Assembly (NCBI GenBank): GCA_041572275.1
Contig: JBFFSQ010000003.1
Span: forward strand, 1 to 37,296
Origin: Gammaproteobacteria bacterium
GTDB lineage: Bacteria; Pseudomonadota; Gammaproteobacteria; SZUA-229
Reading direction: 5' to 3'
DNA length: 37,296 nt
The translations under genes were made by a program, and so were the position numbers. Of this stretch, positions 1-22,974 are shown piece by piece; positions within the stretch are counted from its first letter, which is position 1, and the number at the start of each line of letters is the position of its first letter. The notes beneath the pieces are model-generated. The model was given only the letters and a program-made list of their open reading frames with translations. It searched no databases and had not been told where the DNA came from.

Positions 1-77
1 GAATATCCGGCTTCATCAAGTAGCATGGCCGTAGTATTTTGATGTTCTATATTGTCATGAACCAGTGCAATATTCAT
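1..77 (-). CDS. Partial CDS (N-terminus only, runs off the left edge); possibly a response-regulator receiver domain
   Basis: A minus-strand ATG at 77-75 opens a frame that stays open to position 1 (MNIALVHDNIEHQNTTAMLLDEAGY...). The pattern resembles the beta1/alpha1 start of CheY-like receivers. Only 25 codons are visible and the SD is weak. Confidence 0.3.
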   Translation of the reverse strand, partial: MNIALVHDNIEHQNTTAMLLDEAGY

Positions 78-340: not shown

Positions 341-372
341 AAAAAATAGCCGGGTGACCCGGCTATTTTTAT
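341..372 (-). terminator. Rho-independent terminator after the globin gene (end of the redox operon)
   Basis: Stem tagccggg/cccggcta (347-354 / 358-365). On the minus strand it is followed by a T-run (complement of the A-run at 341-346). It lies about 30 nt downstream of the stop at 397. Confidence 0.8.
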
Positions 373-396: not shown

Positions 397-813
397 TCAG
401 GCAGCCTGTTCAGCGGCGGCTGCTTTCATCGTGTCTGCAACCAGAGTGTAAACGGTTGTCCAGGCAGCCTCCACTTCTTCAGTGAAGGCATCTTTCAGTC
501 CTGCGCCCAGCGTCCAGATCAACGCTGCACCGACCGTGTCATAATCTTCATCTTTTACGCCATAATCGACATGACGTTTACCCATGTCTTGTAAGGCGGG
601 GACGATGGCTTCGACATTATCCAGTGCGTTAACAGCGGTATTTAAAATAGCCATTAATTTACGCCCCTGCTCTTTCATGTCACCTTTAAACATGGATTTA
701 ACTTGTGGATCCAGTTCAAATAGTTTGCCATAGAAAAGCTCAGCTGCTGTTTCTGATATCGGAAGGACCTTGGCCCATGATTCTTTAACCAGTGTAATTT
801 GTTCGGGTGTCAT
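397..813 (-). CDS. Single-domain globin (3-on-3 bacterial haemoglobin; no reductase domain, no signal peptide)
   Basis: 138 aa. Motifs align by eye with the Vitreoscilla Hb / flavohaemoglobin globin domain: ELFYGKLF (Tyr at B10), KEQGRKLMA (Gln at E7), GKRHVDYGV (proximal His F8). It starts 35 nt after the upstream gene. Confidence 0.85.
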   Translation of the reverse strand: MTPEQITLVKESWAKVLPISETAAELFYGKLFELDPQVKSMFKGDMKEQGRKLMAILNTAVNALDNVEAIVPALQDMGKRHVDYGVKDEDYDTVGAALIWTLGAGLKDAFTEEVEAAWTTVYTLVADTMKAAAAEQAA

Positions 814-848: not shown

Positions 849-1442
849 TTAGCCGTCGATGGGGATACGAATAACTACACCACCCATAACATCACCGATT
901 TTAAAATCGGTTTTGGGTGAGTCTTTGTGCTTGTTGTGACAGGAGACACAAACCGGGGCGACGCCAGTATCTGCGTAAATAGCAGTGAAGTAGTTCTGCC
1001 CCCCCAATTTCTCTTCGGTATAAAAGTTTTTGCCTTTATTCTTGGCAATAAATTCCAGGCCCTCTTTTTCAGCGGGGGTTTTCGGGGCATTTTGCTTGTT
1101 GATAGGCCAGATCGACTGCAATGAGTAGCTGAAATTAACATCTGGATTACTGGCTATACGCTTGGCAACATGCTCAGCACCCATGCGGAACATCTGCGCG
1201 GGTAAGGGTAGTGCTTTATCATCGTCAAAATACTCACTGGCTTTAATCACTTTTTCTTTTTTTACCAGGCGGTTAACTACTTTGCGGGTGTAAATAGAGC
1301 GGTCAGAATCAACAACGGTGTGCAGGGCATCAGCCATAGCTTTAACGGGCACCTTGTTTTCACCAATTGCATATGCTGATGTAGCAAGCAGGTTGGCAGA
1401 TAGAATTGTGCTTAATACAAGTACAGGTTTGGATGGTTTCAT
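849..1442 (-). CDS. Secreted DUF3365 (Tll0287-like) c-type haem protein
   Basis: 197 aa. Signal peptide MKPSKPVLVLSTILSANLLATSAYA. Single CxxCH (CVSCH) near the C-terminus in the DUF3365 context ...YFTAIYADTGVAPVCVSCH...GDVMGGVVIRIP. Confidence 0.8.
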   Translation of the reverse strand: MKPSKPVLVLSTILSANLLATSAYAIGENKVPVKAMADALHTVVDSDRSIYTRKVVNRLVKKEKVIKASEYFDDDKALPLPAQMFRMGAEHVAKRIASNPDVNFSYSLQSIWPINKQNAPKTPAEKEGLEFIAKNKGKNFYTEEKLGGQNYFTAIYADTGVAPVCVSCHNKHKDSPKTDFKIGDVMGGVVIRIPIDG

Positions 1443-1490: not shown

Positions 1491-2891
1491 TTAGTCATCA
1501 GACTGTTCTCCAGTGCTATGGCGTAGATGTTCACGTTTGGCCATATCCATAGACTGAATATGAAGTGTGGGCTTGCCCTGAAAGTTGTTGTTGATCAGCT
1601 TGTCGTCGGCAAGCGCATCAATAGAAAACTCAAGGCCATGACATTGCATACAAACGGGGCGTAGCATTTTGGTATTGGGTTTAAGGCTGGCGCTTTGATT
1701 GTGTTGAACCATGATGCGATTAAGCCATTCACTGACATCGTAGCTCGCCCGGGGCATGTGGCAGCTTGCACAGGAGACACCACTGCCAGCCGGTAGCTGG
1801 CCAGACTGTTCCTGCTGCCAGGCTGCATAATGGGCGGACTGTTTATAGGCCAGGCTGTGTTCATCATTGTGGCAAGATAGGCATTGTTCGACGGCAGCAT
1901 CGACCAGATCGTAGCTATGGGCAGGATGACAACTGTTGCACTGCAGTTCCGTACCATGGGACTCGGCTTTCATCGGCAGGCGCGCCAGTGCCGGTGTCAT
2001 TGCCGGTAGGCCAACCTGTAGGCGCATGCCGTGTTTGCCGCGTTTAAAGTGTTTTACTTCGGCACCGTGACATTGAGTGCAGGCATTTAGTTCAGGCTGG
2101 TTAGTCCAGTTGGCTGCGCCACCATCTTCATTGAGAGGGATATGACAGGCGCTGCAATTGGCACCCATTTTGGCGTGAGCTGAGCGAGCCCAGTCCTGTT
2201 TGATTTGATCTGAAGTCTCGACCGTTAGTGGTTTATCAATATCACTCAGGCTCAATGCCTGCACGGGATAACGATCATGGGGGTAGTTCGCTACCTCATC
2301 CAGTACGTCAGCAAACACACGTTTGGGTAGAGTTCTGGAGCTCAGTAATTCGGGTTCATCACGATGCTTGATCAGGAAATCGGTATAGAGAGCACGATTG
2401 TTGTGATAGTTGTGGCAACCGGCACTGGCACAAGTATCGAAGGCCATGCCCTCATGGCTGGGTCGTTCGTCGGCTATACCGGCATGGCAATGAACACAGA
2501 AATCCCGCGCCTGGGTTAAGCCATTTTTCTGGGTAATCGCAGGCTGGTGTTCACTGTGACAGCTGATGCAGTTAAGGGCGTTAATTTTGACCAGTCGATC
2601 AGCGTTTCTAGGGTCCTTGAATTTACTCCTGGGATGAGAATCAAATGGCTTTTGACGGTTATCACCATGACATTCGATACAACTTTCAAGAATTTGATCC
2701 TGATTATCATAAGCATTCTTGTGACAACTGTCACAGCTCATACCAATCTGATGATGGCCATTGCTCAGCTCGCCAGGCATAAAAACAGTTTTGTCATTGT
2801 CGAACCACAACTTGTGACTGAAGTAAGCCAGGCTGATTAGGATAAGAAGGGTCCAGATTAACCAGTAGGTTTTGTTATCAGAAGTGAACAT
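1491..2891 (-). CDS. Membrane-anchored multihaem cytochrome c (10 CxxCH + 1 CxxxxCH)
   Basis: Haem motifs CDSCH, CIECH, CISCH, CVHCH, CASAGCH, CSACH, CTQCH, CNSCH, CLSCH, CASCH and CMQCH. N-terminal TM helix YWLIWTLLILISLAYF. I prefer the ATG at 2891 (MFTSDNK...), 2 nt after the upstream stop, over the ORF-track start at 2948, which overlaps the upstream gene. Confidence 0.85.
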   Translation of the reverse strand: MFTSDNKTYWLIWTLLILISLAYFSHKLWFDNDKTVFMPGELSNGHHQIGMSCDSCHKNAYDNQDQILESCIECHGDNRQKPFDSHPRSKFKDPRNADRLVKINALNCISCHSEHQPAITQKNGLTQARDFCVHCHAGIADERPSHEGMAFDTCASAGCHNYHNNRALYTDFLIKHRDEPELLSSRTLPKRVFADVLDEVANYPHDRYPVQALSLSDIDKPLTVETSDQIKQDWARSAHAKMGANCSACHIPLNEDGGAANWTNQPELNACTQCHGAEVKHFKRGKHGMRLQVGLPAMTPALARLPMKAESHGTELQCNSCHPAHSYDLVDAAVEQCLSCHNDEHSLAYKQSAHYAAWQQEQSGQLPAGSGVSCASCHMPRASYDVSEWLNRIMVQHNQSASLKPNTKMLRPVCMQCHGLEFSIDALADDKLINNNFQGKPTLHIQSMDMAKREHLRHSTGEQSDD

Positions 2892-2893
2892 AA

Positions 2894-4873
2894 TTAAAAG
2901 TAATATGTCTTCAGTATATGGAAGCCGAGTAGTGCCGGTAATGGCCATAAAATGAGAATGTGGCTCCAGGTGGAAAATTGTCGCAGTCGTTTTGACATCT
3001 GCCGTGACAGTTGGTGTTCACTGGCAATGGCGATGCCGGCAATTGCACCGGTAAATAGCAGACTACTGAAGGTAAGCATCAGGTACAGGTTTAGGTTGTC
3101 TCCAAAGCGGAAACCGGTATGGGCAAACAGGATAAAGATAACCAGTAGTGCAATGACAGTATGGGCAACTCGCCAGTCTGCATAATCTCCTAGTTGATGC
3201 AGTTTACGTGTGCGTTTTTTGATTGAGAGCACGGATATAATGAGAGCAAATACAAGGATGCCAAAGCCACTGATTTGTTTGAATAGGCTGGTACGCCAGA
3301 ATGTGTCCAGGCTGATGGACTGTACTGATGCGGCATAATCCATACCGGGAAAGGAAAAAATAGTTAATGCAATGAGAATGCTGATTAAAGAACTCAGCAA
3401 CAATAGATGAGAGCCTTTTACCGGTTCAGGTGTCGATTCTGAATTGGCAAAGTCTATGAGTAAGGGTTTGCATGAGCCGCAGACAGTCGAAGCACCGGTG
3501 ATACGTGCAAGGTCTATAACTGACTCTGCACCAGATTGTTGTGCCTGGCTGAGCTGGCCCCGGGTGACTCCGGTACAGTTGCAAACGGTAGCCGTTGCTG
3601 GCCATTCACAGATATTGTCATGAGTCTTGTCAGGCCAGAGGTAGCCATGTTGTTTGAAGCGTCTGATCTGCCAGGGCCAGACACGTTGTTTACGGGCAAT
3701 GGCTTCACGTAATCGATTGATACCCTGCATTTCACCAACAGCAATGGCACCCTGGAGCCGACCATTGATGATGATGAGTTTACGATAAATATGCTGGCCA
3801 CTGTCATGGAAAATGGCGAGTTCTCTGGAACGTGCTGATTCGCCAGTGTTGCCCATACTAAAAACAGGATAGTCAATTACTTTCAGGTTGGTTGCGGTAA
3901 TGCTGCCCAGATATTGTGCCTGTTTACCGTTAATTCGATGCGCACAAACTGCAGCCTGTTCATAACCGGGGGAGACCAGGCCATAAATCTGATTGTTGTG
4001 TTCAGCGCACTCACCAATGGCAAAGATATTCTGGTCGTTCGTTTGCAACTGGTTGTTAACACGAATGCCTCGGCCAATTTTAATACCGGAATTTCGTATC
4101 AGTTCAATATTAGGTTCAATGCCAGTAGCGATGATCAAGGTATCGCACTCAATAACTTCATCGTTACCTAGCAGGACAGCTGCCACTTTGTCGTCGCCAA
4201 TAATACGCTTAACCGGGCTGTTTAAGCGTATGTTGATACCTGACTGTTCAAGCTGGTACTTTAAGTAGCTACCTGCGTGTTGGTCGAGTTGTCTGAACAA
4301 TAGCCACATGCTGTGTTCGATAACCGTTACCTGTGTGTTGAAGCGCTGCATGGCCCGAGCGGCCTCAAGGCCCAGGAGACCACCGCCAATGACCACTGTG
4401 TGTCGAGTACGGGTGCTACGACTCATTAAGGTCTGCGCATCATTCAGATTGCGTAAGGTAAAGATATTTTTGAGTGCAATACCTTCGATATTTGGGATAT
4501 GTGGACGTGAGCCTGTTGCCAGAATCAGTTGTTTATAACTGTGAGTGATACCCTGGCTATCGGTGACTTCTTTCGAATAGCGATTGATATCAATAATAGG
4601 ATTATTAAAGAAGGTATTGATATTGGGTTTATGTAATATATCCAGGCTGTTATAAAGTGATGCGTGTTTTACTTCACCGGCCACAAGGGCGGAGAGCTGG
4701 ATTCGGTTATAGGGCTCCCAGGGCTCAGCACCAAAAATTGCAATGCGGGTATCTGGGTTTAACTGACATAATTCATAGACTGCACGGACACCTACAGGGC
4801 CAGAGCCGATAATGATAATATCGTGTGCCTGTTTCACAAATGTGTTATCGATTGTCAGTGTTTCAGCCAACAT
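2894..4873 (-). CDS. NAD(P)H/FAD oxidoreductase (NirB N-terminal-like) fused to a BFD-type [2Fe-2S] domain and a 5-TM four-histidine membrane domain
   Basis: 659 aa. Two Rossmann motifs (IIIIGSGPVG, VVIGGGLLGLE). C431-x-C433...C465-x2-C468 (CNCTGVTRGQL...CGSCKP). Five hydrophobic helices lie between residues about 488 and 659, with H571/H585 in helix 3 and H638/H652 in helix 5. Confidence 0.85.
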   Translation of the reverse strand: MLAETLTIDNTFVKQAHDIIIIGSGPVGVRAVYELCQLNPDTRIAIFGAEPWEPYNRIQLSALVAGEVKHASLYNSLDILHKPNINTFFNNPIIDINRYSKEVTDSQGITHSYKQLILATGSRPHIPNIEGIALKNIFTLRNLNDAQTLMSRSTRTRHTVVIGGGLLGLEAARAMQRFNTQVTVIEHSMWLLFRQLDQHAGSYLKYQLEQSGINIRLNSPVKRIIGDDKVAAVLLGNDEVIECDTLIIATGIEPNIELIRNSGIKIGRGIRVNNQLQTNDQNIFAIGECAEHNNQIYGLVSPGYEQAAVCAHRINGKQAQYLGSITATNLKVIDYPVFSMGNTGESARSRELAIFHDSGQHIYRKLIIINGRLQGAIAVGEMQGINRLREAIARKQRVWPWQIRRFKQHGYLWPDKTHDNICEWPATATVCNCTGVTRGQLSQAQQSGAESVIDLARITGASTVCGSCKPLLIDFANSESTPEPVKGSHLLLLSSLISILIALTIFSFPGMDYAASVQSISLDTFWRTSLFKQISGFGILVFALIISVLSIKKRTRKLHQLGDYADWRVAHTVIALLVIFILFAHTGFRFGDNLNLYLMLTFSSLLFTGAIAGIAIASEHQLSRQMSKRLRQFSTWSHILILWPLPALLGFHILKTYYF

Positions 4874-4882
4874 AAACTATCC

Positions 4883-4928
4883 AAAAAAAACGCCATGAAA
4901 AGAAACCAGCCAGTTTCTTTTCATGGCG
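4883..4928 (-). terminator. Strong intrinsic terminator-like hairpin 10 nt upstream of the flavoprotein start codon (possible attenuator or sRNA terminator)
   Basis: Perfect 16-bp stem (cgccatgaaaagaaac at 4891-4906 / gtttcttttcatggcg at 4913-4928) with a 6-nt loop. On the minus strand it is followed by T8 (complement of 4883-4890). The ATG is at 4873. Confidence 0.75.
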
Positions 4929-5210
4929 CCGTTGCCATATAAATTAACTTAGTGATTTATTAGCAGCATGTATGCCAATTGAATAAAATGATAACAAAAC
5001 ACAGTAAACATCAGTGTTTGCGTAGGTGTGGTTAACTGGTGGGGTGTGTTAATGATGGAGCTGTTGTCCAGTGTTGCACTAGAATAGACCCTCATTGCAC
5101 AGTTACTGAACAATATGTGCTAAACAATGCACAATGAACAAACTTAAGTATTCACTGAATACAGGCTGAAGAGCACTTGCTGCTATCGGGTGGCAACAAT
5201 GTCATAGGTG

Positions 5211-5299: not shown

Positions 5300-5710
5300 T
5301 CAGGCTTCGGCTGCTGCTGATTTCATGGTGCCAGCGACCAGACTATAGGTTTCCAGCCATGCCGATTTGACATCATTAGTGAAGTTTTCTTGCAGGCCCT
5401 GCTCCAGGGTCCAGATCAGAGCAGATCCTACAGTGTCATAGTGTTCATTTTTAACGCCGTAATCGAGATGACGTTTACCCATTTGTGCCAAAACTGGAGT
5501 CAATGTGTCCAGTTTATCGATAGAATTCACGGCAATATTTAAAGTCGCCATCAGTTTCTGTCCCTGTTCCTGCATGTTGCCTTTGAATAGCGGCCTGACT
5601 TCAGGATCGAGTTCAAACAGTTTGTCGTAAAAAAGTTCAGCAGCTTTGTCTGCAATAGGCACTACCTGGGCCCATGAGTCTTTAACAAGCTGAATCTGTT
5701 CGGGTGTCAT
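5300..5710 (-). CDS. Single-domain globin, paralogue of the 397-813 gene
   Basis: MTPEQIQLVKDSWAQV... is colinear with the other globin and shows the same FY.KLF / EQG.KLMA / GKRH.DYGV motifs. I prefer the ATG at 5710; the track start at 5779 adds 23 non-homologous residues. Confidence 0.85.
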   Translation of the reverse strand: MTPEQIQLVKDSWAQVVPIADKAAELFYDKLFELDPEVRPLFKGNMQEQGQKLMATLNIAVNSIDKLDTLTPVLAQMGKRHLDYGVKNEHYDTVGSALIWTLEQGLQENFTNDVKSAWLETYSLVAGTMKSAAAEA

Positions 5711-6016: not shown

Positions 6017-6433
6017 TCAGTCTCTTCTAAAGGGTAAGACATCAGCTTTTTCATCATTTATGATTTCGGAAAGTTGCTCGCCCAGCATTAAATCCATGGC
6101 TTCCAGTGTGCGTCTGAGAATCATACTGGCAGCAAAGTGAAATATACGAACTTCGCATTGAATGGCCTCTTGTAGTGAGTCACGGCCTTCGATTTGAAAG
6201 TCGGTCCAGGCAAGAATAGGAAAGTCATTCAATGCTCTGTCAACAACAATCCATGCATCCTTTTGCAGTATTAGATCCAGGTGTTTTAATTTGGGTATAG
6301 GAAATCGTATTTGTCTGCCAAATCTTTTTAAAGCGATTTGAACTTCGTTGTAATAAACAGCCTCAACCTTTCCTTCACGGTTATGAAGTAAAGGGACTTC
6401 GTTATGTCGAGTATAGAGCTGTGTAGGATTCAA
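6017..6433 (-). CDS. Hypothetical protein (138 aa), no recognisable domain
   Basis: Clean ORF downstream of the cbbO terminator on the same strand. No signal peptide, TM helix or motif that I can name. Confidence 0.55.
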   Translation of the reverse strand: MNPTQLYTRHNEVPLLHNREGKVEAVYYNEVQIALKRFGRQIRFPIPKLKHLDLILQKDAWIVVDRALNDFPILAWTDFQIEGRDSLQEAIQCEVRIFHFAASMILRRTLEAMDLMLGEQLSEIINDEKADVLPFRRD

Positions 6434-6530: not shown

Positions 6531-8888
6531 TTATGATGTTAGTGAAGCGAATAGTGTTGGTAGCTTTTCTGGCAAACGGTCAACGTTATCAATTACGGTG
6601 TAATTATTTTCACCAAAGATACGCTTCACATAAGCATCAGCATGAGGATCCAGTGTTAAGCAGTATGTAAGAACTCCTGTAGAATAAAGTTCCTCTACTG
6701 CTTTCTTGGTATCATGACGTAAATGCTGTGGGTCGCGTTCATCAATATCAGCCGGTTCACCATCGGTGACCAGAAGAATTAACTTACGACGTTCAGGCTG
6801 CTTTAACAGATGATGACCTGCATGTCGTAATGCTGCCCCCATGCGTGTAGATAAACCGCCTTTCATACCCGCCAGGCGACCTTTAACATCATCATCTAAT
6901 TTTTGATTAAAGTCCTTGAAGCGATAATACTGCACGTCATGACGGCCATCAGATGCAAAGCCATGCAGTGCAAATGGATCACCGATACCATTAATTGCTG
7001 TAGCAACTAAAGTCGCCGCCTCTCGCGTTAACTGAAGCACTGTTTTTTCTGAACCACCCATAGGTTCATTGGTTGATTCAGACAGGTCCATTAATACGAC
7101 GATAGACAGGTCACGTGTGTTCAACACATTACGCATGGTAATACGTGGGTTGGGCTGTTCGCCCATACGTATAGCAATCATCGCATCTACCGCGGCATTA
7201 ATATCCAGCTCATCACCGTCTTCTAAACCGCGCTTACGTTGAACGCCTTCTGGGGTTAACAAATCAATGATTTGTTTAATGCGATGCGCAACAGGTTTGT
7301 ACTCATCCAGAATCAGCTTAATATCTTCCGGATCGCCTAACGGTTGACGTCGCTCGTATACAGTTGCCCAGTCAGGACGGTGTAATTGAATCTGGTAATC
7401 CCATTCCTGGTAATGGAAAGGATCGGAAACAGGTTCCTTACCCCACATGTCGTTGAAACTGACTTGCTCATCGGTCAGGTCGTCTTCATAGGGACGCATG
7501 TTTGTTGAACATGTCCAGATTTCCTGAGCGTCATCACCCGCCAGCTCACAGTCAACTTCGTTAGCCATTTCAATAACACTAACTTGTTTACGAACCTGGC
7601 GCTGACTAGCCGCAACATATTCAAACTCAACATCTGAATCAAATTCTTCAAATTCCCAGACATAGCGATTATCATCGCGGTAAGGGATACGAATACGTTC
7701 AAGGATACGTAAACTCGGGACATTCTTGCGGCCAGAGAACAGGTTAAACAGTTCCATACCCATATGCCATGAGTAATTGTTATCATCCTGTTTGTCTTCT
7801 ATTTCGGCGTGGAAACGTTGAACAAACTCGGCAACCTGCTCATCATCCGTCGTTATGGAATCATCAAGCAGCATGTGTGCGATATGTTCCAGCTCTTTCA
7901 TTGCCGGATGTTCTAACTCTTCATCCTCATCGGCAATTTTCAGGAGTTCTGCCCACAGTTTTTTCAAGCCGGGAAAATCCTTAGCCGCTTTATATTCAAC
8001 GCGTGCGTCTTCCATAAAGCCGATGAAGAACATCTGTGCCGGACTAAGCTGCTCTGCAGAAATAGCTGAGTCTGAATAACACATGTGTGCGGCCATATGA
8101 GCTGCCGTAGCACGATACAGTTCCAGGCCTGGGATCTTGTTATCATCAGGACCGACATCATCAACCGCATCAGGCATATGCACAATACGGTGTTCAATAT
8201 AGGGTCGGAAATCTGTGTAGTCTGCACCGGTAGGACGCAGGAAGAAATCACGACCCCACAAGGCACGCAGATAAAAATTCAGTTTGCGCTGTACTTTAAT
8301 GAACAGAACACCACGACGTTCTTTCTGTAACATCGCCTTTGAGTCTGCTGATTCCAGGTTAAAGTAGGTCGTCAGGTTATCAAAATCACGACGGTATGCC
8401 TGGGCGCCAAAATTGGCCCAGCGACGTAAGCCACTTAAGGTCAGTTTATCCAGCAGCTGATCAATGTGATTTAACATTGGGCGCAAACCACGTGCCGCAG
8501 TTGATGCAAACTGGTGGATAAAGGTCAGATAGCCACGTACCAGTTCAGCATCACCCAGGTGACGGGCTGCAGATGGCAAACTAGCAAAGAGTAAAGAGAT
8601 AACTTCACCTGATGTCATGGAAGACAATTTCATGGCTGCAGTGATACAGTCATCAATGATGTCTTCACCACATTCCTTGGCAACCAGCGGCATTTCCTGG
8701 AGGTAAGTTATGACCAGGTCAGAACCACGGCCCAGGTTAGACATAGCTTTGGCACCACTCAGGTAAGCTTCCAGTCCAGTTGGCGACATAATACGTGCCG
8801 CCTCATGAAAAGTGCCATTCAGTACATCACGTACTTCAGGAGCTACATCTTGTAACTGTTCTTCGTAATCTTCTAGATTGATCGACAT
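6531..8888 (-). CDS. cbbO: RuBisCO activase subunit CbbO (vWA-domain protein, NorD-like)
   Basis: 785 aa. C-terminal von Willebrand A domain with MIDAS-type VVLMDLSESTN. It sits immediately downstream of cbbQ in a cbbLS operon. Confidence 0.9.
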   Translation of the reverse strand: MSINLEDYEEQLQDVAPEVRDVLNGTFHEAARIMSPTGLEAYLSGAKAMSNLGRGSDLVITYLQEMPLVAKECGEDIIDDCITAAMKLSSMTSGEVISLLFASLPSAARHLGDAELVRGYLTFIHQFASTAARGLRPMLNHIDQLLDKLTLSGLRRWANFGAQAYRRDFDNLTTYFNLESADSKAMLQKERRGVLFIKVQRKLNFYLRALWGRDFFLRPTGADYTDFRPYIEHRIVHMPDAVDDVGPDDNKIPGLELYRATAAHMAAHMCYSDSAISAEQLSPAQMFFIGFMEDARVEYKAAKDFPGLKKLWAELLKIADEDEELEHPAMKELEHIAHMLLDDSITTDDEQVAEFVQRFHAEIEDKQDDNNYSWHMGMELFNLFSGRKNVPSLRILERIRIPYRDDNRYVWEFEEFDSDVEFEYVAASQRQVRKQVSVIEMANEVDCELAGDDAQEIWTCSTNMRPYEDDLTDEQVSFNDMWGKEPVSDPFHYQEWDYQIQLHRPDWATVYERRQPLGDPEDIKLILDEYKPVAHRIKQIIDLLTPEGVQRKRGLEDGDELDINAAVDAMIAIRMGEQPNPRITMRNVLNTRDLSIVVLMDLSESTNEPMGGSEKTVLQLTREAATLVATAINGIGDPFALHGFASDGRHDVQYYRFKDFNQKLDDDVKGRLAGMKGGLSTRMGAALRHAGHHLLKQPERRKLILLVTDGEPADIDERDPQHLRHDTKKAVEELYSTGVLTYCLTLDPHADAYVKRIFGENNYTVIDNVDRLPEKLPTLFASLTS

Positions 8889-8981
8889 TTTTTTACCTAA
8901 CCATAAATATAAGGTTATTGCTTATATGCCATACCTGAAAGTTGAACAGGTATAGCACGTCTTTACTTTATCGGTAAAAAA

Positions 8982-9797
8982 TTAACCAAAGAATGTCTGT
9001 ACGGCAGCATTCAGCGTATCACGCATATCCGGGTCATCTGTTAATGGTGTGACCATGGTCATGCTACAGGCGGCTTCGGCATCAATGCCTTTGCTAATCA
9101 GTTGTCCTGCGTAAACCAGTAGACGGGTTGAAATGCCTTCATCCAGACCGTGACCTTTCAGGTTACGCGCACGGTGTGCAATCTGGACCAGTTTTTCTGC
9201 AGTAGCTTTATCAACACCCGATTCTTTTGAAACAATCGAAACTTCAATTTCTTCAACTGGATAATCAAAATCCAGACCACCGAATCGCTGCTTGGTAGAT
9301 TGCTTAAGATCTTTCATCAAGCTCTGGTAGCCAGGGTTATAAGAGATAACCAGCTGGAAATCAGGATGGGCTTCGATGAGCTCACCTTTCTTATCTAATG
9401 GCAGAGTGCGACGGTGGTCAGTTAACGGGTGAATAACTACCGTTGTATCCTGGCGTGCTTCAACCACTTCGTCCAGGTAACAGATTGCACCAATACGTGC
9501 GGCTGTTGCTAATGGACCATCCTGCCATTTGGTACCATCTTTATCCAGCAGGAAGCGACCTACCAGGTCAGATGCAGTCATATCTTCATTACATGCAACT
9601 GTGATCAATGGACGACCCAGTTTATAAGCCATATATTCAACAAAGCGAGATTTACCACAACCTGTTGGGCCTTTCAGCATCATTGGCATACGTGCGTTAT
9701 ACGCGGCTTCGTATAGCTCAATTTCATTAGCAACTGGCTCAAAGTATGGTTCTTCTTTAATAATGTATTGTTGTGGATCAACAGTATTTTCTGACAT
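8982..9797 (-). CDS. cbbQ: RuBisCO activase AAA+ ATPase CbbQ (MoxR class, NorQ-like)
   Basis: 271 aa. Walker A GPTGCGKS, Walker B CYLDEV, and the typical CbbQ/NorQ length and context. Confidence 0.93.
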   Translation of the reverse strand: MSENTVDPQQYIIKEEPYFEPVANEIELYEAAYNARMPMMLKGPTGCGKSRFVEYMAYKLGRPLITVACNEDMTASDLVGRFLLDKDGTKWQDGPLATAARIGAICYLDEVVEARQDTTVVIHPLTDHRRTLPLDKKGELIEAHPDFQLVISYNPGYQSLMKDLKQSTKQRFGGLDFDYPVEEIEVSIVSKESGVDKATAEKLVQIAHRARNLKGHGLDEGISTRLLVYAGQLISKGIDAEAACSMTMVTPLTDDPDMRDTLNAAVQTFFG

Positions 9798-9847
9798 GAC
9801 ACACCCTTTCTTGATGTTTCGGTTTAATTTTTAAAATCTTCAAAACC

Positions 9848-9871
9848 TTCTTGTATAAGCCTATACAAGAA
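9848..9871 (-). other. Intercistronic stem-loop between orf110 and cbbQ
   Basis: Perfect 10-bp inverted repeat ttcttgtata / tatacaagaa with a 4-nt loop. On the minus strand it is followed by GGTTTTGAAGATTTT. The stem is AT-rich, so it would be only a weak terminator or a processing site. Confidence 0.4.
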
Positions 9872-9912
9872 TAATGAAATCAAATATTGATTCGCCCTGC
9901 TAAACAACGTGC

Positions 9913-10245
9913 TTATAGCTCGCTGTAAATCTCATATTCACCATCCCATCCAAGTTCACGTGCTTTTTTTACCGCTTCATCGTGGATGCGTTGATGACGT
10001 TCAAATAAATCTTCTGGTAACCGGCTGACTAAACAACCGTATTTATCCCACTCGGCATTAACCTTATCTTGTAAAGCGTCAATCCCGGCTAGGTTCCAGC
10101 CCTTACAGGTTTCAGTTTCTTCAATAATGCCAAACACACGTGCATCGCGAACCAGTTTTCCGATTGTGGTCATACCCCCGAACAGGTCTTCATCGATTCC
10201 GACATAACGATCGTTCTGTGCTGATTTTGATGGTTGTCTTGGCAT
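9913..10245 (-). CDS. Hypothetical acidic protein (110 aa) inserted between cbbS and cbbQ
   Basis: ATG-initiated ORF with a weak GGTAAG SD-like element 8 nt upstream. No motif recognised. It is bracketed by the cbbS terminator and the 9848-9871 stem-loop. Confidence 0.55.
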   Translation of the reverse strand: MPRQPSKSAQNDRYVGIDEDLFGGMTTIGKLVRDARVFGIIEETETCKGWNLAGIDALQDKVNAEWDKYGCLVSRLPEDLFERHQRIHDEAVKKARELGWDGEYEIYSEL

Positions 10246-10285
10246 AAAAACACTTACCTATTATTAAAAATTACTTTATCTACAG

Positions 10286-10330
10286 AGATAAAAAAGCCCC
10301 TGTGCTGCAGATGCAGACCAGGGGCTTTTT
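10286..10330 (-). terminator. Intrinsic terminator/attenuator after cbbS
   Basis: Stem agcccctg / caggggct (10295-10302 / 10319-10326) with runs of A/T on both sides. It lies about 25 nt downstream of the cbbS stop. This is the usual place where cbbLS transcripts are partly terminated ahead of the accessory genes. Confidence 0.8.
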
Positions 10331-10352
10331 CAGGTATAAACCCCGGATCTGC

Positions 10353-10709
10353 TTATACAGCTTCGCCGCGGAAGATAACCATAGATGCACCAGCACACTG
10401 TGCAAAGTTGTCCAGACCTAACAGGCGAACGTGGTTGCCTGGGTGAGCTTTTTTACAAGCTTCACATTCAGCCAGGATAGCATCAACGTCAGTTTCACCG
10501 AACATTGGCAGCTTCCACATGTACCAGTAAGAACCACTGGCGTTTTGAGGCTCAGTGTGTTCAATTGATGGGTTCCAACCTTTGCCTACGATGTACTCGA
10601 TTTGAGCGCGGATCTGATCAGCGTCCATAGATGGCAGGTAAGAGAAAGTTTCAAACTTACGGCTGTTAGCGTCGCCTAAGCTTGATGCGTAATCTTGCAT
10701 ATCACTCAT
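10353..10709 (-). CDS. cbbS: RuBisCO small subunit
   Basis: 118 aa, recognisable RbcS/CbbS sequence (...[12 protein letters not shown]...). It starts 79 nt after the cbbL stop. Confidence 0.95.
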
Positions 10710-10788
10710 TGTGAATACTCCAAATTAAATTTCGTTTGTAAGAGCAACTCTTAAGAGCTGCTCCTACGCAGCATTAGCTATATCGCTA

Positions 10789-12207
10789 TTACTTGTGAGA
10801 AACGTCCAGCTTATCAACTGTGTCGAATTCGAACTTGATTTCTTTCCAAGTTTCCATCGCAGCTTTAAGCTCTGGGCTGCTCTTAGCAGCGTTAGTAAGG
10901 ATGTCCTTACCTTCTTTCTCAAGCTCACGACCAGTGTTACGTGCTTCAACACAAGCTTCAACAGCAACACGGTTAGCAGCTGCACCCGCAGCGTTGCCCC
11001 ATGGGTGACCTAATGTACCGCCACCGAACTGCAGTACAGAGTCATCACCAAAGATGTTAACCAGCGCAGGCATGTGCCATACATGGATACCACCAGAAGC
11101 TACTGGGATAACGCCAGGCATTGAACCCCAGTCCTGATCAAAGAAGATACCGCGTGAACGATCTTCTTTGATGAATGAATCACGCATGATGTCGATCCAG
11201 CCCAGAGTTGCTTCACGATCGCCTTCCAGCTTACCAACAACAGTACCTGAATGCAGGTGGTCACCACCAGACAGACGTAATACTTTAGTTAACACACGGA
11301 AGTGGATACCGTGGTGTGGGTTACGGTCAAGTACCGCGTGCATTGCACGGTGAATGTGCAGCAGCATGCCGTTGTCCTGACACCATTGAGCCAGCTGAGT
11401 GTTCGCTGACAGACCACCAGTCAGGTAGTCATGCATGATGATAGGTGCGCCGATTTCTTTCGCGTATTCTGCACGCTTCATCATTTCATCAGATGTAGGA
11501 GCAGTAACGTTCAGGTAATGACCTTTACGCTCACCAGTCTCAGCTTCAGCTTTCAGGATAGCTTCCATTACGAAATCGAAACGGTGCTTCCAACGCATGA
11601 ATGGCTGTGAGTTAACGTTTTCGTCGTCTTTAGTGAAGTCAAGACCGCCACGCAGACCTTCGTAACATGCACGACCGTAGTTCTTGGCAGACAGACCCAG
11701 TTTAGGTTTGATAGTACAACCCAGCATAGGACGACCGTACTTGTTCATGATGTCACGTTCAACCTGGATACCCTGCGGTGGTCCATTACAAGTCATAACG
11801 TAAGCAACTGGGAAGCGGATATCTTCTAAACGAAGTGCACGCAGAGCTTTGAAACCAAATACGTTACCAACCAGTGAAGTCAGTACGTTTACAACTGAAC
11901 CTTCTTCGAACAGGTCAATTGGGTATGCGATGAACGCGTAGAAACAAGTGTCATCACCTGGTACGTCTTCGATCGCATATGCGCGACCTTTGTAGTAGTC
12001 CAGATCAGTTAACAGGTCAGTCCATACAGTAGTCCATGTACCTGTTGAAGATTCAGCAGCTACCGCAGCAGCAACTTCTTCACGAGGAACACCTTCCTGT
12101 GGAGTAACTTTAAAACAAGCCAGAATATCAGTCTCTAATGGAGTGTATTCGGGCATCCAATAAGTTTCGCGGTATTCTTTAACACCAGCGTCGTACTTTT
12201 TAGCCAT
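10789..12207 (-). CDS. cbbL: RuBisCO large subunit, form IA (green-type; Q-type locus)
   Basis: Canonical motifs [31 protein letters not shown] and [11 protein letters not shown]. The N-terminus [12 protein letters not shown] is typical of form IA. The ATG at 12207 has a GGAGG SD at 12214-12218; the track start at 12231 is an upstream extension. Confidence 0.97.
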
Positions 12208-12436
12208 TATAGGCCTCCTAGTAATTAACAAGGTTTTTAAATTCTTTCCTAGCCAGCAGATTGAATCTCTATTCCGTTGGCGTTTAAATCATGGGTAAAT
12301 AATCACCCATGACTCAGTGGGAATGGAAGTATATGCGAAGCAAACTATAAAGATATTCAGTATTTTTGATTGTTATCATAAATAAATGCTTATACTATTA
12401 ATATTTCATACATACTATTATTAAAGTTGATAGATC
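12208..12436. promoter_or_regulatory. Divergent cbbR-cbbL control region with candidate LysR (T-N11-A / TNA-N7-TNA) box
   Basis: AT-rich 229-nt spacer between divergent cbbL and cbbR. TCAGTATTTTTGA at 12357-12369 fits T-N11-A with TCA/TGA dyad ends. An 8-bp-stem hairpin, tcatgggt(12289-12296)/acccatga(12305-12312), lies in the presumed cbbL leader. Promoter hexamers are not confidently placed. Confidence 0.4.
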
Positions 12437-13345
12437 ATGCATGTGACATTACGTCAATTAGAGGTATTCGAGGCAGTGGCTCGCTTAAATAGCTATACCA
12501 AAGCGGCCGAGGAATTGCACCTGAGTCAGCCTGGTGTTTCTATGCAAATCAAACAGTTAGAAGAAAGTATCGGCCTGCCGCTGTTTGAGCATGTTGGTAA
12601 GAAAATTTTTATAACTACCGCTGGTCGGGAAATGTACAGCTATAGCCAGACTATCAGTCATTTGTTAGATGAGGCGGATACGGTCATTGAAGAATTGAAA
12701 GGTGTACAAAGCGGTCGTCTGGCGATTTCCGTAGCCACTACTGCCAGTCATTTTGCCACTCGCCTGTTGGCTGCCTTTTCGCAGCGTTATGAGGGTGTCA
12801 CCATCAGTCTGGATATCACCAACCGGGAAAGCCTGCGTCGCCAGCTGGAGCATAATGAGCCGGATCTGGTTATCATGGGTCAACCACCAGAAGGTGTGGA
12901 TACAGAATCCGAGATCTTCATGGAAAATCCGCTGGTAATGATAGCACCACCTGATCATCCTCTTGTCGAAGAAAAAAATATTCCATTAGAACAATTTGAG
13001 CATGAGCATTTTGTGGTGCGTGAGGGAGGCTCCGGTACGCGCAGTGCAATTCAGCGTTTTTTTGAAGATCACGGCGTGAGTTTTCATACCGGTATTGAGA
13101 TGAGCAGTAACGAAGCCATCAAGCAGGCGGTTGAGGCCGGGCTGGGCCTGGGGATAGTGTCCATCCATACTCTGGAGCTGGAGCTGGCAACTAATACCCT
13201 GGTGACGCTGGATGTGGAGGATTTTCCAATCATGCGTCATTGGCACATTGTGCAGCGATCGGGAAAACGTTTATCTCCTGTTGCCCAGACGTTCAAGCAG
13301 TTTGTACTCGACGAAGCGAAGCAGTTTATTCGGCTGGAAAAATAA
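12437..13345 (+). CDS. cbbR: LysR-family transcriptional regulator of the cbb operon
   Basis: 302 aa. N-terminal HTH (YTKAAEELHLSQPGVSMQIKQLEE) plus a LysR substrate-binding domain. It is divergently adjacent to cbbL. Confidence 0.9.
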   Translation: MHVTLRQLEVFEAVARLNSYTKAAEELHLSQPGVSMQIKQLEESIGLPLFEHVGKKIFITTAGREMYSYSQTISHLLDEADTVIEELKGVQSGRLAISVATTASHFATRLLAAFSQRYEGVTISLDITNRESLRRQLEHNEPDLVIMGQPPEGVDTESEIFMENPLVMIAPPDHPLVEEKNIPLEQFEHEHFVVREGGSGTRSAIQRFFEDHGVSFHTGIEMSSNEAIKQAVEAGLGLGIVSIHTLELELATNTLVTLDVEDFPIMRHWHIVQRSGKRLSPVAQTFKQFVLDEAKQFIRLEK

Positions 13346-13432: not shown

Positions 13433-15553
13433 TTGAATAATTATAATAATGTCCAGAAATCCGGTCCTGACCGGTTTGTCAAAGAACCCATCGTTATTAG
13501 CTCTGTATTACTCCTGATTAGCTGGACCTTGTTAACCGGCTATTCTCTCTACTGGAATATTACCAATCTGTATCAGAGGCAAGTGGATCTTGCCGCTTCG
13601 GAGGCGCGTGCCAACTGGAATAAAGATCGTGCGTTTCGTGACTGGACCACTCGACAGGGTGGTGTCTATGTCAAAACCAGTGATCAGGTTCGACCCAATG
13701 AAAACCTGGCGCATTTAAAGAATCGGGATTTGCACACCCTGGAAGGAGTCCAGCTTACATTGTTGAATCCAGCGTTTATTTTGCGGGAAATGACTGCTGA
13801 GTTTGAGCAGGCAACAGGAATTAAGGGACGCCTCACTGCGAAACAGGTCTTTAATCTTGAAAATAAGGCCGATGCCTGGGAGCAGGCTGCTATTGCGCGG
13901 TTTGAGCAAGGGATCGAAGAAGTAATTGAAGAGACAGAAATCGATGGTGCACCTTATTTGCGTTTCATGAAACCGGTATACGTCAATAAGGAGTGTATTC
14001 ATTGCCATGGTGATCTGGGATTTAAAGAAGGCGATTTACGTGGTGGTATGAGCGTGTCTGTGCCTTTAACGCCCTACCTGACAAGTGCTGCCCAGACCGT
14101 GAATTCCATGGTCTTGACCCACGCCAGTGTCTGGTTGCTAGGATTTCTGGGGATTGTGGCATTTGCCTGGATGGCCCGTGTTCGAGAAAAAGACCGTTTT
14201 GTTTTGCAGGCGCAGCTGGCCCATGATGCCCTGCACGATGTCCTCACTGATCTACCTAACCGTACGCTGTTTACCGATCGACTGAATACCGCGATTCGCA
14301 TGAAACAGCGAGATCCTGGCTATCAGTTTGCCATTTGTTTTCTCGACCTGGATCGTTTCAAGAACCTGAATGATAGCTACGGTCATAAACTGGGTGATGA
14401 AATGCTCAAGCAGGTGGCAGAGCGTTTTAGTGAAATTACCCGGCCTATGGACACGGTTGCGCGTATGGGCGGCGATGAGTTTACGTTCCTGCTGGAAAAT
14501 TATGCGAATGACAAGGAAGCAGTATCGATTATTGAGCGTTTACTGGCTACCTTGAAGGAGCCCTTTGATATAGCCGGTACGCTAATTTATACCAATGCCA
14601 GTATCGGTGTGTGCTTTGGCGATAGTAACTATAAGCGTGCCGATGACATGATACGAGATGCAGATATTGCCATGTACCAGGCCAAGTCTTCGGGCAAAGG
14701 CCAGGCCTATATCTTTGATCCACATATGCATCGTCAGGCGGTGGTGGCTATGCAAATTGAAAATGATCTCCGCCATGCTCTGATCAATGAGCAATTTGAA
14801 GTCTATTACCAGCCAATCATCAATCTGCAGGAAAACAGGATTGATGGCTTTGAGGCCTTGTTACGATGGCACCACCCGCAATTAGGGGATGTACCGCCGG
14901 ATGATTTTATTCCGGTGGCGGAAGATATGGGGGTGATTGGTGAAATTGGTGAATGGGTGCTCAGACAGGCATGTGCCCAGGTTCAGCAGTGGAGTGATCA
15001 GTATCGACCTGAGGAGGGCTTTTTTGTCTCGGTAAACCTGTCGGGTCGGCAGATCATTGACAGTGGGCTCAAGCAGACAATTGCAGCTATCCTTGAGTCA
15101 ACAGGTATGGATCCAGCTCGCTTGCATTGTGAGATTACCGAGACCATGCTAATCCAGCATAAGGAATTGGCCGCAGTAGTAATGGATGATATTCAGGCGA
15201 TGGGGGTGCATATCAGTATTGATGATTTCGGTAAGGGCTATTGTTCCCTGACGTATCTGCATCGATTCAAGTTCAATACCCTGAAAATTGATAAATCATT
15301 CGTCCAGGATATGAGTAACTATGGTAAGGGACTATCATTGGTACGCACAATCATGGTGCTGGCTCGAGATTTCGGTACTGCAGTTGTTGCCGAGGGCGTT
15401 GAAGATAAAGATCAGCTTGATCGCCTACTGTCACTTAAGTGTCGATGGGCACAGGGCTACTATTTCTATAAGCCGTCACCTGCAGACGCTCTGAGTCACT
15501 GCCTGCAGGCGGGTTGTCACCAGTTGCTTGGCAAACTGGGCTGCTGTCAATGA
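13433..15553 (+). CDS. Membrane-bound DUF3365 (haem-c sensor)-GGDEF-EAL c-di-GMP signalling protein
   Basis: 706 aa. TM helix, then a periplasmic DUF3365 with CIHCH (encoded at 13994-14008), then a second TM helix. The GGDEF domain has an RPMD I-site 5 residues before GGDEF. The EAL domain has EALLRW, DDFGKGY and EGVE. The TTG start is taken from the ORF track and no SD is seen. Confidence 0.85.
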   Translation: MNNYNNVQKSGPDRFVKEPIVISSVLLLISWTLLTGYSLYWNITNLYQRQVDLAASEARANWNKDRAFRDWTTRQGGVYVKTSDQVRPNENLAHLKNRDLHTLEGVQLTLLNPAFILREMTAEFEQATGIKGRLTAKQVFNLENKADAWEQAAIARFEQGIEEVIEETEIDGAPYLRFMKPVYVNKECIHCHGDLGFKEGDLRGGMSVSVPLTPYLTSAAQTVNSMVLTHASVWLLGFLGIVAFAWMARVREKDRFVLQAQLAHDALHDVLTDLPNRTLFTDRLNTAIRMKQRDPGYQFAICFLDLDRFKNLNDSYGHKLGDEMLKQVAERFSEITRPMDTVARMGGDEFTFLLENYANDKEAVSIIERLLATLKEPFDIAGTLIYTNASIGVCFGDSNYKRADDMIRDADIAMYQAKSSGKGQAYIFDPHMHRQAVVAMQIENDLRHALINEQFEVYYQPIINLQENRIDGFEALLRWHHPQLGDVPPDDFIPVAEDMGVIGEIGEWVLRQACAQVQQWSDQYRPEEGFFVSVNLSGRQIIDSGLKQTIAAILESTGMDPARLHCEITETMLIQHKELAAVVMDDIQAMGVHISIDDFGKGYCSLTYLHRFKFNTLKIDKSFVQDMSNYGKGLSLVRTIMVLARDFGTAVVAEGVEDKDQLDRLLSLKCRWAQGYYFYKPSPADALSHCLQAGCHQLLGKLGCCQ

Positions 15554-22726: not shown

Positions 22727-22974
22727 AGCAACTTTATCAATGGTTAGGGCAATAATAAGCCTGACTGTGGCTGCGGGCCATTCAGTCAGGCGCAAGTATC
22801 AGTTGCCGAAAAGCATAATCAATAAATTGAATAATTGATTTGATTTGTCACAATTTGTCATTATTCATCAGGTCGTTGCAGGAATTTAAGCACGGTATTG
22901 CCATATTCGAAGCATAGATTATTCAACAGGACACCGAAAGCGGTGTTGTTGAATGAAACGATGAGGATATGACA

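Follow-up and report, generated by a model that had tools for sequence, protein, structure and literature searches.

Enzymes of the NOX, FRE, STEAP, SpNOX and MsrQ type pass electrons from NAD(P)H to flavin, through two stacked b haems and on to an acceptor on the outer side of the membrane. The classic mark of a bis-haem protein is a pair of parallel helices that each carry His-x13-His at matching depths. NOX enzymes and ferric reductases consist of six helices and a C-terminal FNR-type dehydrogenase, and STEAP is the precedent for a dehydrogenase at the N-terminus. In bacteria, redox enzymes of the periplasm and the cell exterior are generally supplied with electrons by the quinone pool, or by NQR/RNF-type and flavinylated systems. 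Here, we describe a gene in a 37,296-nucleotide stretch of gammaproteobacterial DNA (contig JBFFSQ010000003.1, assembly GCA_041572275.1; hereafter the window). It encodes a fusion of a NirB-type flavoprotein, a BFD-type [2Fe-2S] domain and a transmembrane (TM) domain with four invariant histidines. We propose that it probably draws electrons from NAD(P)H and delivers them to multihaem cytochromes of the periplasm, on the principle of the NOX-type enzymes but with a protein built from different parts. The features of the gene are as follows.

2894-4873, minus strand: whole gene, flavoprotein, BFD and four-histidine TM fusion of 659 amino acids, from the list of open reading frames (ORFs) and the translation; stop codon at 2894-2896
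3689-4825, minus strand: residues 17-395, two-Rossmann FAD/NAD(P)H module and Rubredoxin_C-type domain of the NirB / ferredoxin-reductase class (Pfam, NCBIfam, Foldseek with TMt 0.86)
3461-3589, minus strand: residues 429-471, BFD-type [2Fe-2S] domain (Pfam Fer2_BFD, E = 2e-9, above cut-off; codon positions checked)
2897-3412, minus strand: residues 488-659, five-helix TM domain, predicted di-haem-b module of an uncatalogued family (AlphaFold model of the TM domain alone, pLDDT 91.7)
3161-3163, minus strand: codon of H571, helix 3, cytoplasmic side (73/73 homologues; codon checked)
3119-3121, minus strand: codon of H585, helix 3, periplasmic side, opening an H-T-G-x-x-x-G motif (73/73)
2960-2962, minus strand: codon of H638, helix 5, cytoplasmic side (73/73; codon checked)
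2918-2920, minus strand: codon of H652, helix 5, periplasmic side (73/73; codon checked)

The ORF at 2894-4873 is real and lies on the minus strand, which an earlier note made from the letters alone had left unstated; an identical protein is present in NCBI assembly GCA_041549995.1. The division proposed in that note, a two-Rossmann FAD/NAD(P)H module followed by a BFD-type domain and five TM helices, is borne out throughout. For the N-terminal module, Pfam, the match to half of NirB and the Foldseek fold agree. Pfam places Pyr_redox_2 at residues 17-301 (E = 2e-62), with Pyr_redox also matched, and Rubredoxin_C at residues 327-395. The top NCBIfam match, at 387 bits, is the N-terminal half of NirB (TIGR02374), whose model of 794 positions is covered from 1 to 470 by residues 19-481. 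For want of the sirohaem half, the score stays under the cut-off of 578 bits: nothing aligns with model positions 471-794, and neither Pfam nor NCBIfam finds NIR_SIR domains in the window protein. The full-length AlphaFold model, built from 73 homologues, is of high confidence (pLDDT 90.9, pTM 0.78), and Foldseek aligns its first ~400 residues with the structures of putidaredoxin, BphA4 and rubredoxin reductases (E ~1e-33, TMt 0.82-0.89).

Conservation was assessed in 73 full-length homologues with 30-54% identity to the window protein. Among the glycine motifs for FAD and NAD(P)H binding, G23 and G25 are kept in 72 sequences and G163, G165 and G168 in all of them. The acidic position that follows the second Rossmann strand (E186) holds Glu or Asp in 58 of the 73, which suggests a preference for NADH and hence NADH as the likely donor. 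The four cysteines of the BFD domain (C431, C433, C465 and C468) are located where the earlier note had placed them, and each is invariant. In the input half of NirB, electrons run from NADH over FAD to a BFD-type cluster, and the window protein comprises the same electron-input half, with FAD and NADH domains and a BFD-type cluster. Unlike NirB, it carries a TM domain in place of the sirohaem/[4Fe-4S] catalytic half. Without that half it cannot be a nitrite reductase of the NirB type, and automatic database names such as ‘nitrite reductase (NADH) large subunit’ are misleading. In one NirB-type member (P0175, 927 amino acids), ~240 low-complexity residues rich in Ser and Pro separate TM helix 1 from the BFD domain, so that a rigid connection of the latter to the membrane domain may not be needed.

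The hydropathy scan and the AlphaFold model concur on five TM helices, at residues 488-507, 529-554, 564-586, 594-617 and ~636-658. H571 and H585 lie on helix 3 and H638 and H652 on helix 5, each pair 14 residues apart. Like the ferric-reductase domain of NOX enzymes, the TM domain thus presents two histidine pairs on two helices of the same direction, with a spacing within the 12-14 residues expected of that domain. The orientation of the helices follows from the distribution of charge. The family means for Lys+Arg are 3.6 in the loop at 553-565 and 4.2 in the loop at 618-636, compared to 0.7-1.4 in the remaining loops. Since the Lys/Arg-rich loops are expected on the inside and the poor ones in the periplasm, the N-terminus would be cytoplasmic and helices 3 and 5 would both run in-to-out, as the earlier note had supposed. 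Topology and model together support a position near the inner face for H571 and H638 and near the outer face for H585 and H652.

All four histidines are invariant in the 73 homologues, and they are also kept in the variants with different cytoplasmic domains described below. The other histidines of the TM region are variable: H489 is conserved in 0 of 72 homologues, H559 in one, and H620 is found in 28 of 73 sequences. Given this difference, and the equally invariant cysteines, the pattern is not due to chance. About 20 further TM residues are near-invariant. At the periplasmic ends of the helices these form two motifs, H-T-G-x-R-x-G-x-x-x-N from H585 onwards (T586 in 72/73, G587 and G591 in 73/73, N595 in 67/73) and W-R-D...K-Q-x-S-G before helix 2. 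Basic residues flank the inner histidines (R552-K553-R554 and W567-R568). The family is large: an exhaustive hidden Markov model search with the TM domain returned 791 cluster representatives (clustering at 50% identity), of which 373 reach E <=1e-30, with lengths mostly of 640-700 amino acids. A first impression of a rare family of 27 fragments, obtained by a word-indexed search, was an artefact of sensitivity. For gene context, one genome per species was scanned, yielding the 80 related loci to which locus counts refer. Their hosts are found in the Gammaproteobacteria (Chromatiales, Thiogranum, Halochromatium glycolicum, Hahella, Haliea, Neptuniibacter, Cellvibrionaceae), the Betaproteobacteria (Gallionellaceae, Burkholderiales), the Planctomycetes, the Verrucomicrobia, the Omnitrophota and the Polyangiaceae. 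Of 79 loci, about 74 show the complete fused architecture (~637-740 amino acids).

The TM domain is not covered by any Pfam or NCBIfam model above threshold, and a sequence search of the PDB with the family profile gives no match at E <=10. When 38 diverse family members were scanned singly against Pfam, matches below threshold recurred to four families: DUF4405 in 23 of the 38 (best E 1e-4, more precisely 1.1e-4), Ni_hydr_CYTB (prokaryotic cytochrome b561) in 15 (best E 1e-3), Ferric_reduct in 10 (best E 0.018) and PepSY_TM in two (best E 4.6). The nearest of these by such weak matches is DUF4405 (PF14358), where the matches cover the TM2-TM3 hairpin up to the second histidine. The printed member scores of 14-19 bits stay below the gathering score of 26.7 bits, and the window protein itself is unmatched. 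Like the TM domain described here, DUF4405 proteins have four conserved histidines at the centre of their TM core. They belong with the flavinylation and ferrosome cytochromes (PepSY-like, MsrQ-like, FezC) and differ in being described as stand-alone proteins with six TM helices, tied to ApbE flavinylation systems rather than to dehydrogenases or multihaem cytochromes. For DUF4405, binding of haem b by the four central histidines was demonstrated experimentally, with the pyridine haemochrome method (PMC11334425). Weak matches to DUF2232 and exosortase are spurious, as they do not recur across the family. The earlier note had named a match to a non-haem transporter or anchor family as an outcome that would undo its claim; no such family is matched, and the recurrent weak matches point exclusively to di-haem-b membrane cytochromes. 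We therefore read the TM domain as a probable uncatalogued, distant branch of the di-haem-b superfamily and do not claim membership of any one family. The architecture as a whole is likewise uncharacterised in Pfam, NCBIfam and the PDB, and literature searches covering Tll0287-like (DUF3365) and DUF4405 proteins, multihaem systems with NADH, undecahaem cytochromes with globins and bacterial NOX enzymes found no description of it or of its operon.

The gene heads a tightly packed operon on the minus strand, whose further members and neighbouring elements are listed below.

1491-2891, minus strand: undecahaem cytochrome c, 466 amino acids from the likely start M20 of a longer ORF, with an N-terminal TM anchor (Pfam Cytochrom_c3_2)
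849-1442, minus strand: Tll0287-like (sCache_haem) periplasmic monohaem protein, 197 amino acids, signal peptide and one CxxCH (PF11845, E = 4e-19)
397-813, minus strand: single-domain globin of the Hmp-globin type, 138 amino acids, no signal peptide, last gene of the operon (Pfam Globin, E = 1e-18; NCBIfam flavohaemoprotein N-terminal domain)
342-370, minus strand: terminator-like hairpin after the last operon gene (terminator scan)
5300-5710, minus strand: second globin paralogue upstream of the operon's leader, with M24 of the listed ORF as its likely start (Pfam Globin)

The stop codon of the fusion gene and the start codon of the cytochrome gene are 2 nucleotides apart (TAAttATG). An orthologue of the undecahaem cytochrome follows directly downstream in 78 of the 80 loci, often overlapping or within ~20 nucleotides, and it is also present in all variant loci. 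The protein has ten CxxCH motifs and one CxxxxCH, a pattern kept in 70 of 71 orthologues, and the orthologues share 11 further invariant histidines outside these motifs. With 11 additional histidines for 11 haems, all haems can be bis-His ligated, and the protein looks like a wire rather than an enzyme. A catalytic role in the manner of NrfA or HAO was considered and set aside for the same reason, as no open five-coordinate haem is apparent; matches to NrfA structures in the PDB are local and weak (E = 1e-3). UetJ, the undecahaem cytochrome of Tenderiales, is a different, extracellular protein from another cluster.

The Tll0287-like protein is nearly as constant, with orthologues in 74 related loci and in the variant loci L083 and L087. 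Its CxxCH is present in 72 of 72 orthologues, without a conserved additional cysteine. The window protein has no cysteine outside CxxCH, and the same is true for 52 of the 72 orthologues in the aligned region. Judged from these alignments, the axial cysteine of Tll0287, which has Cys/His ligation, is missing in the protein of the operon. In a study of Tll0287-like proteins, the type without this cysteine bound nitric oxide (NO) tightly, and the Cys/His type, the ligation seen in Tll0287 and the redox type of P. putida, behaved as a redox carrier (PMC12889525). The last position is taken by a globin in about 51 loci and by a truncated haemoglobin in 11 others, so that ~62 of the 80 operons have one or the other. 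In 50 loci, a small class-I cytochrome c is interposed among the downstream genes, which is not the case in the window. The two window globins are 65% identical and flank the operon; the upstream one has no counterpart at that position in the related loci.

The cytoplasmic part of the protein is exchangeable. In P0038 (951 amino acids, locus L087), an EF-hand pair and a BFD domain precede FAD_binding_6, NAD_binding_1 and the TM domain. P0083 (1013 amino acids, loci L084-L086) carries three cyclic-nucleotide-binding (cNMP-binding) domains, BFD, an FNR module and the TM domain, and P0155 (866 amino acids) has the same order with two cNMP-binding domains. All three retain the four histidines and the H-T-G motif, and the FNR-type relatives also retain the segment homologous to residues 331-485 of the window protein. 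Undecahaem orthologues (44-53% identity) are present at the P0038 and P0083 loci, the two loci read, and a Tll0287-like orthologue (69% identity) at one of them. As two unrelated NAD(P)H dehydrogenases are attached to one TM domain, this domain likely accepts their electrons. A further variant, P0025/P0026, has a GPP34 domain and no redox module, and both cytochrome partners are still kept. In locus L083 (7591-8867), GPP34 (Golgi phosphoprotein 3-like) and the four-histidine TM domain are encoded by two ORFs, which form one protein of 425 amino acids in a cluster member; the undecahaem and Tll0287-like genes follow, and the dehydrogenase is absent. On the basis of gene content, the constant core of the system is the TM domain with the undecahaem and Tll0287-like cytochromes, to which different cytoplasmic inputs are attached, in most cases an NAD(P)H dehydrogenase together with a BFD domain.

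Domain composition, conservation, gene linkage and domain swapping are direct observations, from which we infer haem binding, the direction of flow, the order of the carriers and the final acceptor. Electrons of NAD(P)H, probably NADH, would enter FAD in the cytoplasmic NirB-type module and move on to the [2Fe-2S] cluster of the BFD domain. The cluster would reduce an inner b haem held by H571 and H638, which would pass the electrons to an outer b haem held by H585 and H652. From there, they would reach the membrane-anchored undecahaem cytochrome c, a putative wire towards the Tll0287-like haem and, in many genomes, the small class-I cytochrome c. The best-supported view, by analogy, is that the steps from NAD(P)H to the inner haem copy the input half of NirB and that the transmembrane step copies the NOX-type enzymes. 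We favour the conclusion that the protein is a membrane NAD(P)H:cytochrome c oxidoreductase exporting electrons without the quinone pool, with a probability of roughly 0.6. The passage of NAD(P)H electrons across the membrane through a four-histidine domain, as suggested in the earlier note, is supported in silico by the conservation and the weak homologies. The idea of export gains further strength from two features outside the protein, the undecahaem gene 2 nucleotides downstream and the relatives with a swapped dehydrogenase and the same partners. The membrane potential would aid an outward flow of electrons; energy would therefore be spent, which fits a detoxifying or electron-sink role.

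Several differences set the protein apart from the described systems. It has five TM helices instead of six, and its dehydrogenase is N-terminal and of the two-Rossmann NirB class. Even the FNR-type relatives have their FNR module N-terminal to the TM domain, at the opposite end compared to NOX. Some of these relatives carry EF-hand or cNMP-binding domains, similar to NOX5 and DUOX. Moreover, the window protein adds a [2Fe-2S] step, and its proposed acceptor is the undecahaem cytochrome rather than O2 or Fe(III). The best reading of this comparison is that the protein would work like a NOX/ferric-reductase enzyme, yet is not a member of that family. CymA, NapC, NrfH and the CbcL-type fusions also feed periplasmic multihaem c-type cytochromes from a membrane module. 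They draw on quinol, whereas the fused NAD(P)H dehydrogenase is the apparent donor here, and no sequence similarity to either the CymA/NapC/NrfH or the CbcL families is detected with Pfam and NCBIfam. We rate the TM domain family as new, being apparently undescribed, and the putative transmembrane di-haem exporter fused to a dehydrogenase as known in kind.

The neighbourhood of the operon suggests what the exported electrons may be used for. Two elements in the window are relevant.

1-77, minus strand: first 77 nucleotides of a response-regulator gene (MNIALVHDN...), running off the left edge, downstream of the operon
4881-4930, minus strand: leader element, perfect 19-bp hairpin followed by U8, terminator or attenuator candidate (terminator scan; RNA fold z = -4.2)

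On the matching NCBI contig, the cut gene encodes a Response_reg+ANTAR protein of 197 amino acids. ANTAR response regulators (NasT-like) occur in 26 related loci, NMT1_2 proteins (NasS/NrtA-like) in 33, and genes for an Nrt-type permease or ATPase in 20-29. At locus L091, genes for a porin, NasT, NasS and NrtABC lie divergently beside a complete operon. The U-run of the leader ends 7 nucleotides before the ATG of the fusion gene, and the hairpin lies ~370 nucleotides after the stop codon of the upstream globin gene. Comparable elements of a hairpin and a T-run precede the gene in six related loci (L026, L040, L042, L043, L045 and L062). The hairpin is a possible ANTAR-controlled attenuator, i.e., a candidate for antitermination, and NasS/NasT probably mediate induction of the operon by nitrate or nitrite. 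No Rfam family reaches its gathering score. The narK-RNA (RF03032) gives a hit at 4923-4976, beside the hairpin, with an E-value of 0.4-1.4 that is far below threshold and was not used as evidence, and microRNA matches at the leader merely reflect the hairpin.

A precedent for a flavoprotein in such surroundings is the nitrate-assimilation system of Bradyrhizobium, which is controlled by NasS/NasT. In this NasC-NarK-Bjgb-Flp-NirA system, expression of a flavoprotein and a single-domain haemoglobin goes along with that of the nitrate assimilation genes, and nitrate assimilation is thereby linked to NO detoxification (PMC4724949). Unlike the operon described here, it is wholly cytoplasmic, without a TM haem domain or periplasmic cytochromes. 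Taken together, the Nas and Nrt neighbours, the leader hairpin, the globin and the cysteine-less Cache-haem protein suggest that NO or nitrite is dealt with in the periplasm as well as in the cytoplasm. The operon would probably supply reducing power for a periplasmic reaction of NO or nitrite, and cytoplasmic NO would be left to the co-transcribed globin. We hold such a nitrogen-oxide role only tentatively, at somewhat less than even odds. The composite picture is hardly firmer: a new and widespread bacterial counterpart of the NADPH oxidases that rests on a new di-haem-b domain family, bypasses the quinone pool, arose with at least two dehydrogenase fusions, delivers electrons to the eleven-haem wire and a Cache-haem protein open to ligands and is induced by nitrate or nitrite to serve periplasmic NO or nitrite reduction alongside a cytoplasmic globin may hold, with the odds slightly against it.

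A number of results weigh against the proposal of electron export or against its nitrogen-oxide extension. Ferric_reduct (PF01794) does not match the window protein even at E <=10, and no Pfam threshold is reached by the TM domain. A profile comparison (hhalign) of the family with the single E. coli MsrQ and CybB sequences, which are weak targets, was not significant. A Foldseek search of the PDB with the TM-only model retrieved talin and generic helical bundles, with a best E-value of 0.34; as simple helical bundles are poorly discriminated in this way, the null result is no argument against a haem bundle. The GPP34 variant keeps the cytochromes, and its TM domain must obtain electrons elsewhere, possibly from quinol. 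There is no obvious open catalytic haem in the undecahaem protein. Finally, nitrate-related neighbours are found in only about one third of the loci, and the part of the window that was read holds no nitrate-related gene except for the cut ANTAR gene.

Among the alternatives, the one that survives best, although we consider it unlikely, makes the TM domain a di-haem cytochrome b that reacts with quinones, as NarI, FdnI and CybB do, and through it the protein would mainly exchange electrons with the quinone pool. It could take two forms, an NAD(P)H:quinone reductase or a quinol dehydrogenase that feeds the undecahaem cytochrome and has the flavoprotein as an optional second input. Quinol is the simplest donor for the GPP34-TM variant, which retains the cytochromes without a redox module, and Ni_hydr_CYTB, the family weakly matched in 15 of the 38 scanned members, is quinone-reactive. 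The strongly conserved motifs on the periplasmic side could make up a quinone site just as well as a docking site. The independent fusion of two unrelated classes of NAD(P)H dehydrogenase, each with a BFD domain, is difficult to reconcile with quinol as the normal donor, and no quinone-site motif was identified. Exchange with quinones and export from NAD(P)H are compatible and do not exclude each other.

In a second alternative, which we regard as improbable, the flavoprotein and the BFD domain chiefly reduce the cytoplasmic globin, forming a split NO dioxygenase like Flp/Bjgb, and the TM domain is a tether. Single-domain globins need a reductase, and a globin or truncated haemoglobin is indeed encoded in most of the operons (~62 of 80). 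The pairing of a flavoprotein and a haemoglobin in a nitrate-assimilation operon also has a precedent (PMC4724949). Yet, the undecahaem (78 of 80) and Tll0287-like (74) genes are more constant than the globin. No globin is encoded at the GPP34 locus L083, and the short contigs with FNR-type variants end before the position at which one would be expected. A separate Fer2-FNR reductase lies beside the globin in ten loci. Moreover, a mere anchor would not keep four histidines and some 20 near-invariant TM residues.

The adjacency of the operon to a form I RuBisCO cluster (cluster and regulator at 6531-13345) brings up a reversal of the flow.

10789-12231, minus strand: cbbL
10353-10709, minus strand: cbbS
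9913-10245, minus strand: unassigned ORF of 110 amino acids between cbbS and cbbQ
8982-9797, minus strand: cbbQ
6531-8888, minus strand: cbbO-like VWA protein
12437-13345: divergent LysR regulator beside the cluster

The host is probably a chemolithoautotroph, and several hosts of related loci are sulfur or iron oxidisers (Thiogranum, Chromatiales, Gallionellaceae). The periplasmic cytochromes might thus oxidise an external donor such as reduced sulfur, Fe(II) or hydroxylamine, and NAD(P)+ would be reduced for CO2 fixation. This is very improbable. Inward flow opposes the membrane potential without a visible energy-coupling device, and reduction of NAD(P)+ from donors at the level of cytochrome c is strongly uphill. 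In addition, no RuBisCO family is among the conserved neighbours of related loci, and the adjacency to cbbLSQO was discarded as a functional clue on that account. Many hosts also belong to groups that we take to be heterotrophs (Hahella, Halieaceae, Cellvibrionaceae, Neptuniibacter). An equally slim chance is left to the last alternative, that the four histidines bind a non-haem ligand such as a transported or structural metal and the TM domain carries no electrons: haem binding is a prediction and no known haem family is matched significantly, but the His-x13-His pattern on two parallel helices, the recurrent weak homology to haem-b families only, the electron-input modules as constant fusion partners and the c-type cytochromes as constant neighbours all point away from it.

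If export from NAD(P)H holds true, a single polypeptide would supply periplasmic multihaem cytochromes directly from NAD(P)H and thereby open a new way into extracytoplasmic electron transfer. A NOX-like design assembled from different parts, with Ca2+- and cyclic-nucleotide-related domains in its relatives, also bears on the origin and regulation of NOX-type enzymes. In annotation, a definition of the TM family, with at least 791 clusters at 50% identity, would correct many entries misnamed as ‘nitrite reductase large subunit’. If the link to nitrogen oxides is true as well, the operon would be a candidate for a new NO or nitrite system in marine and sediment Proteobacteria, Planctomycetes and Verrucomicrobia. 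Cultured hosts exist, namely Hahella sp. CCB-MM4, Halochromatium glycolicum DSM 11080, Neptuniibacter sp. CAU 1671 and Haliea sp. E17.

Some minor observations concern the related loci and the remainder of the window. Locus L090 (10001-11195) holds an apparently decayed operon, with a TM-only ORF of 164 amino acids and cytochrome fragments of 73, 52 and 76 amino acids. An ANTAR regulator gene lies upstream of it, and NrtABC-like genes and a P-II gene lie downstream; this copy is possibly a pseudogene or an assembly error. In the window, a 706-amino-acid GGDEF+EAL protein with an N-terminal Tll0287-like (sCache_haem) domain is encoded at 13433-15553 on the plus strand. It is of a signalling type reported to bind NO (PMC12889525), and it has the haem-motif region alone in common with the Tll0287-like protein of the operon. 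On the minus strand, the ORF at 6017-6433 (138 amino acids) has no Pfam or NCBIfam match and no counterpart in the 80 related loci, and the ORF at 20813-22795 (660 amino acids) has no Pfam match. At 35376-36992, on the plus strand, a CusB/HlyD-type membrane-fusion protein with heavy-metal-binding and CusF-like domains is encoded, which is unrelated to the system described here.

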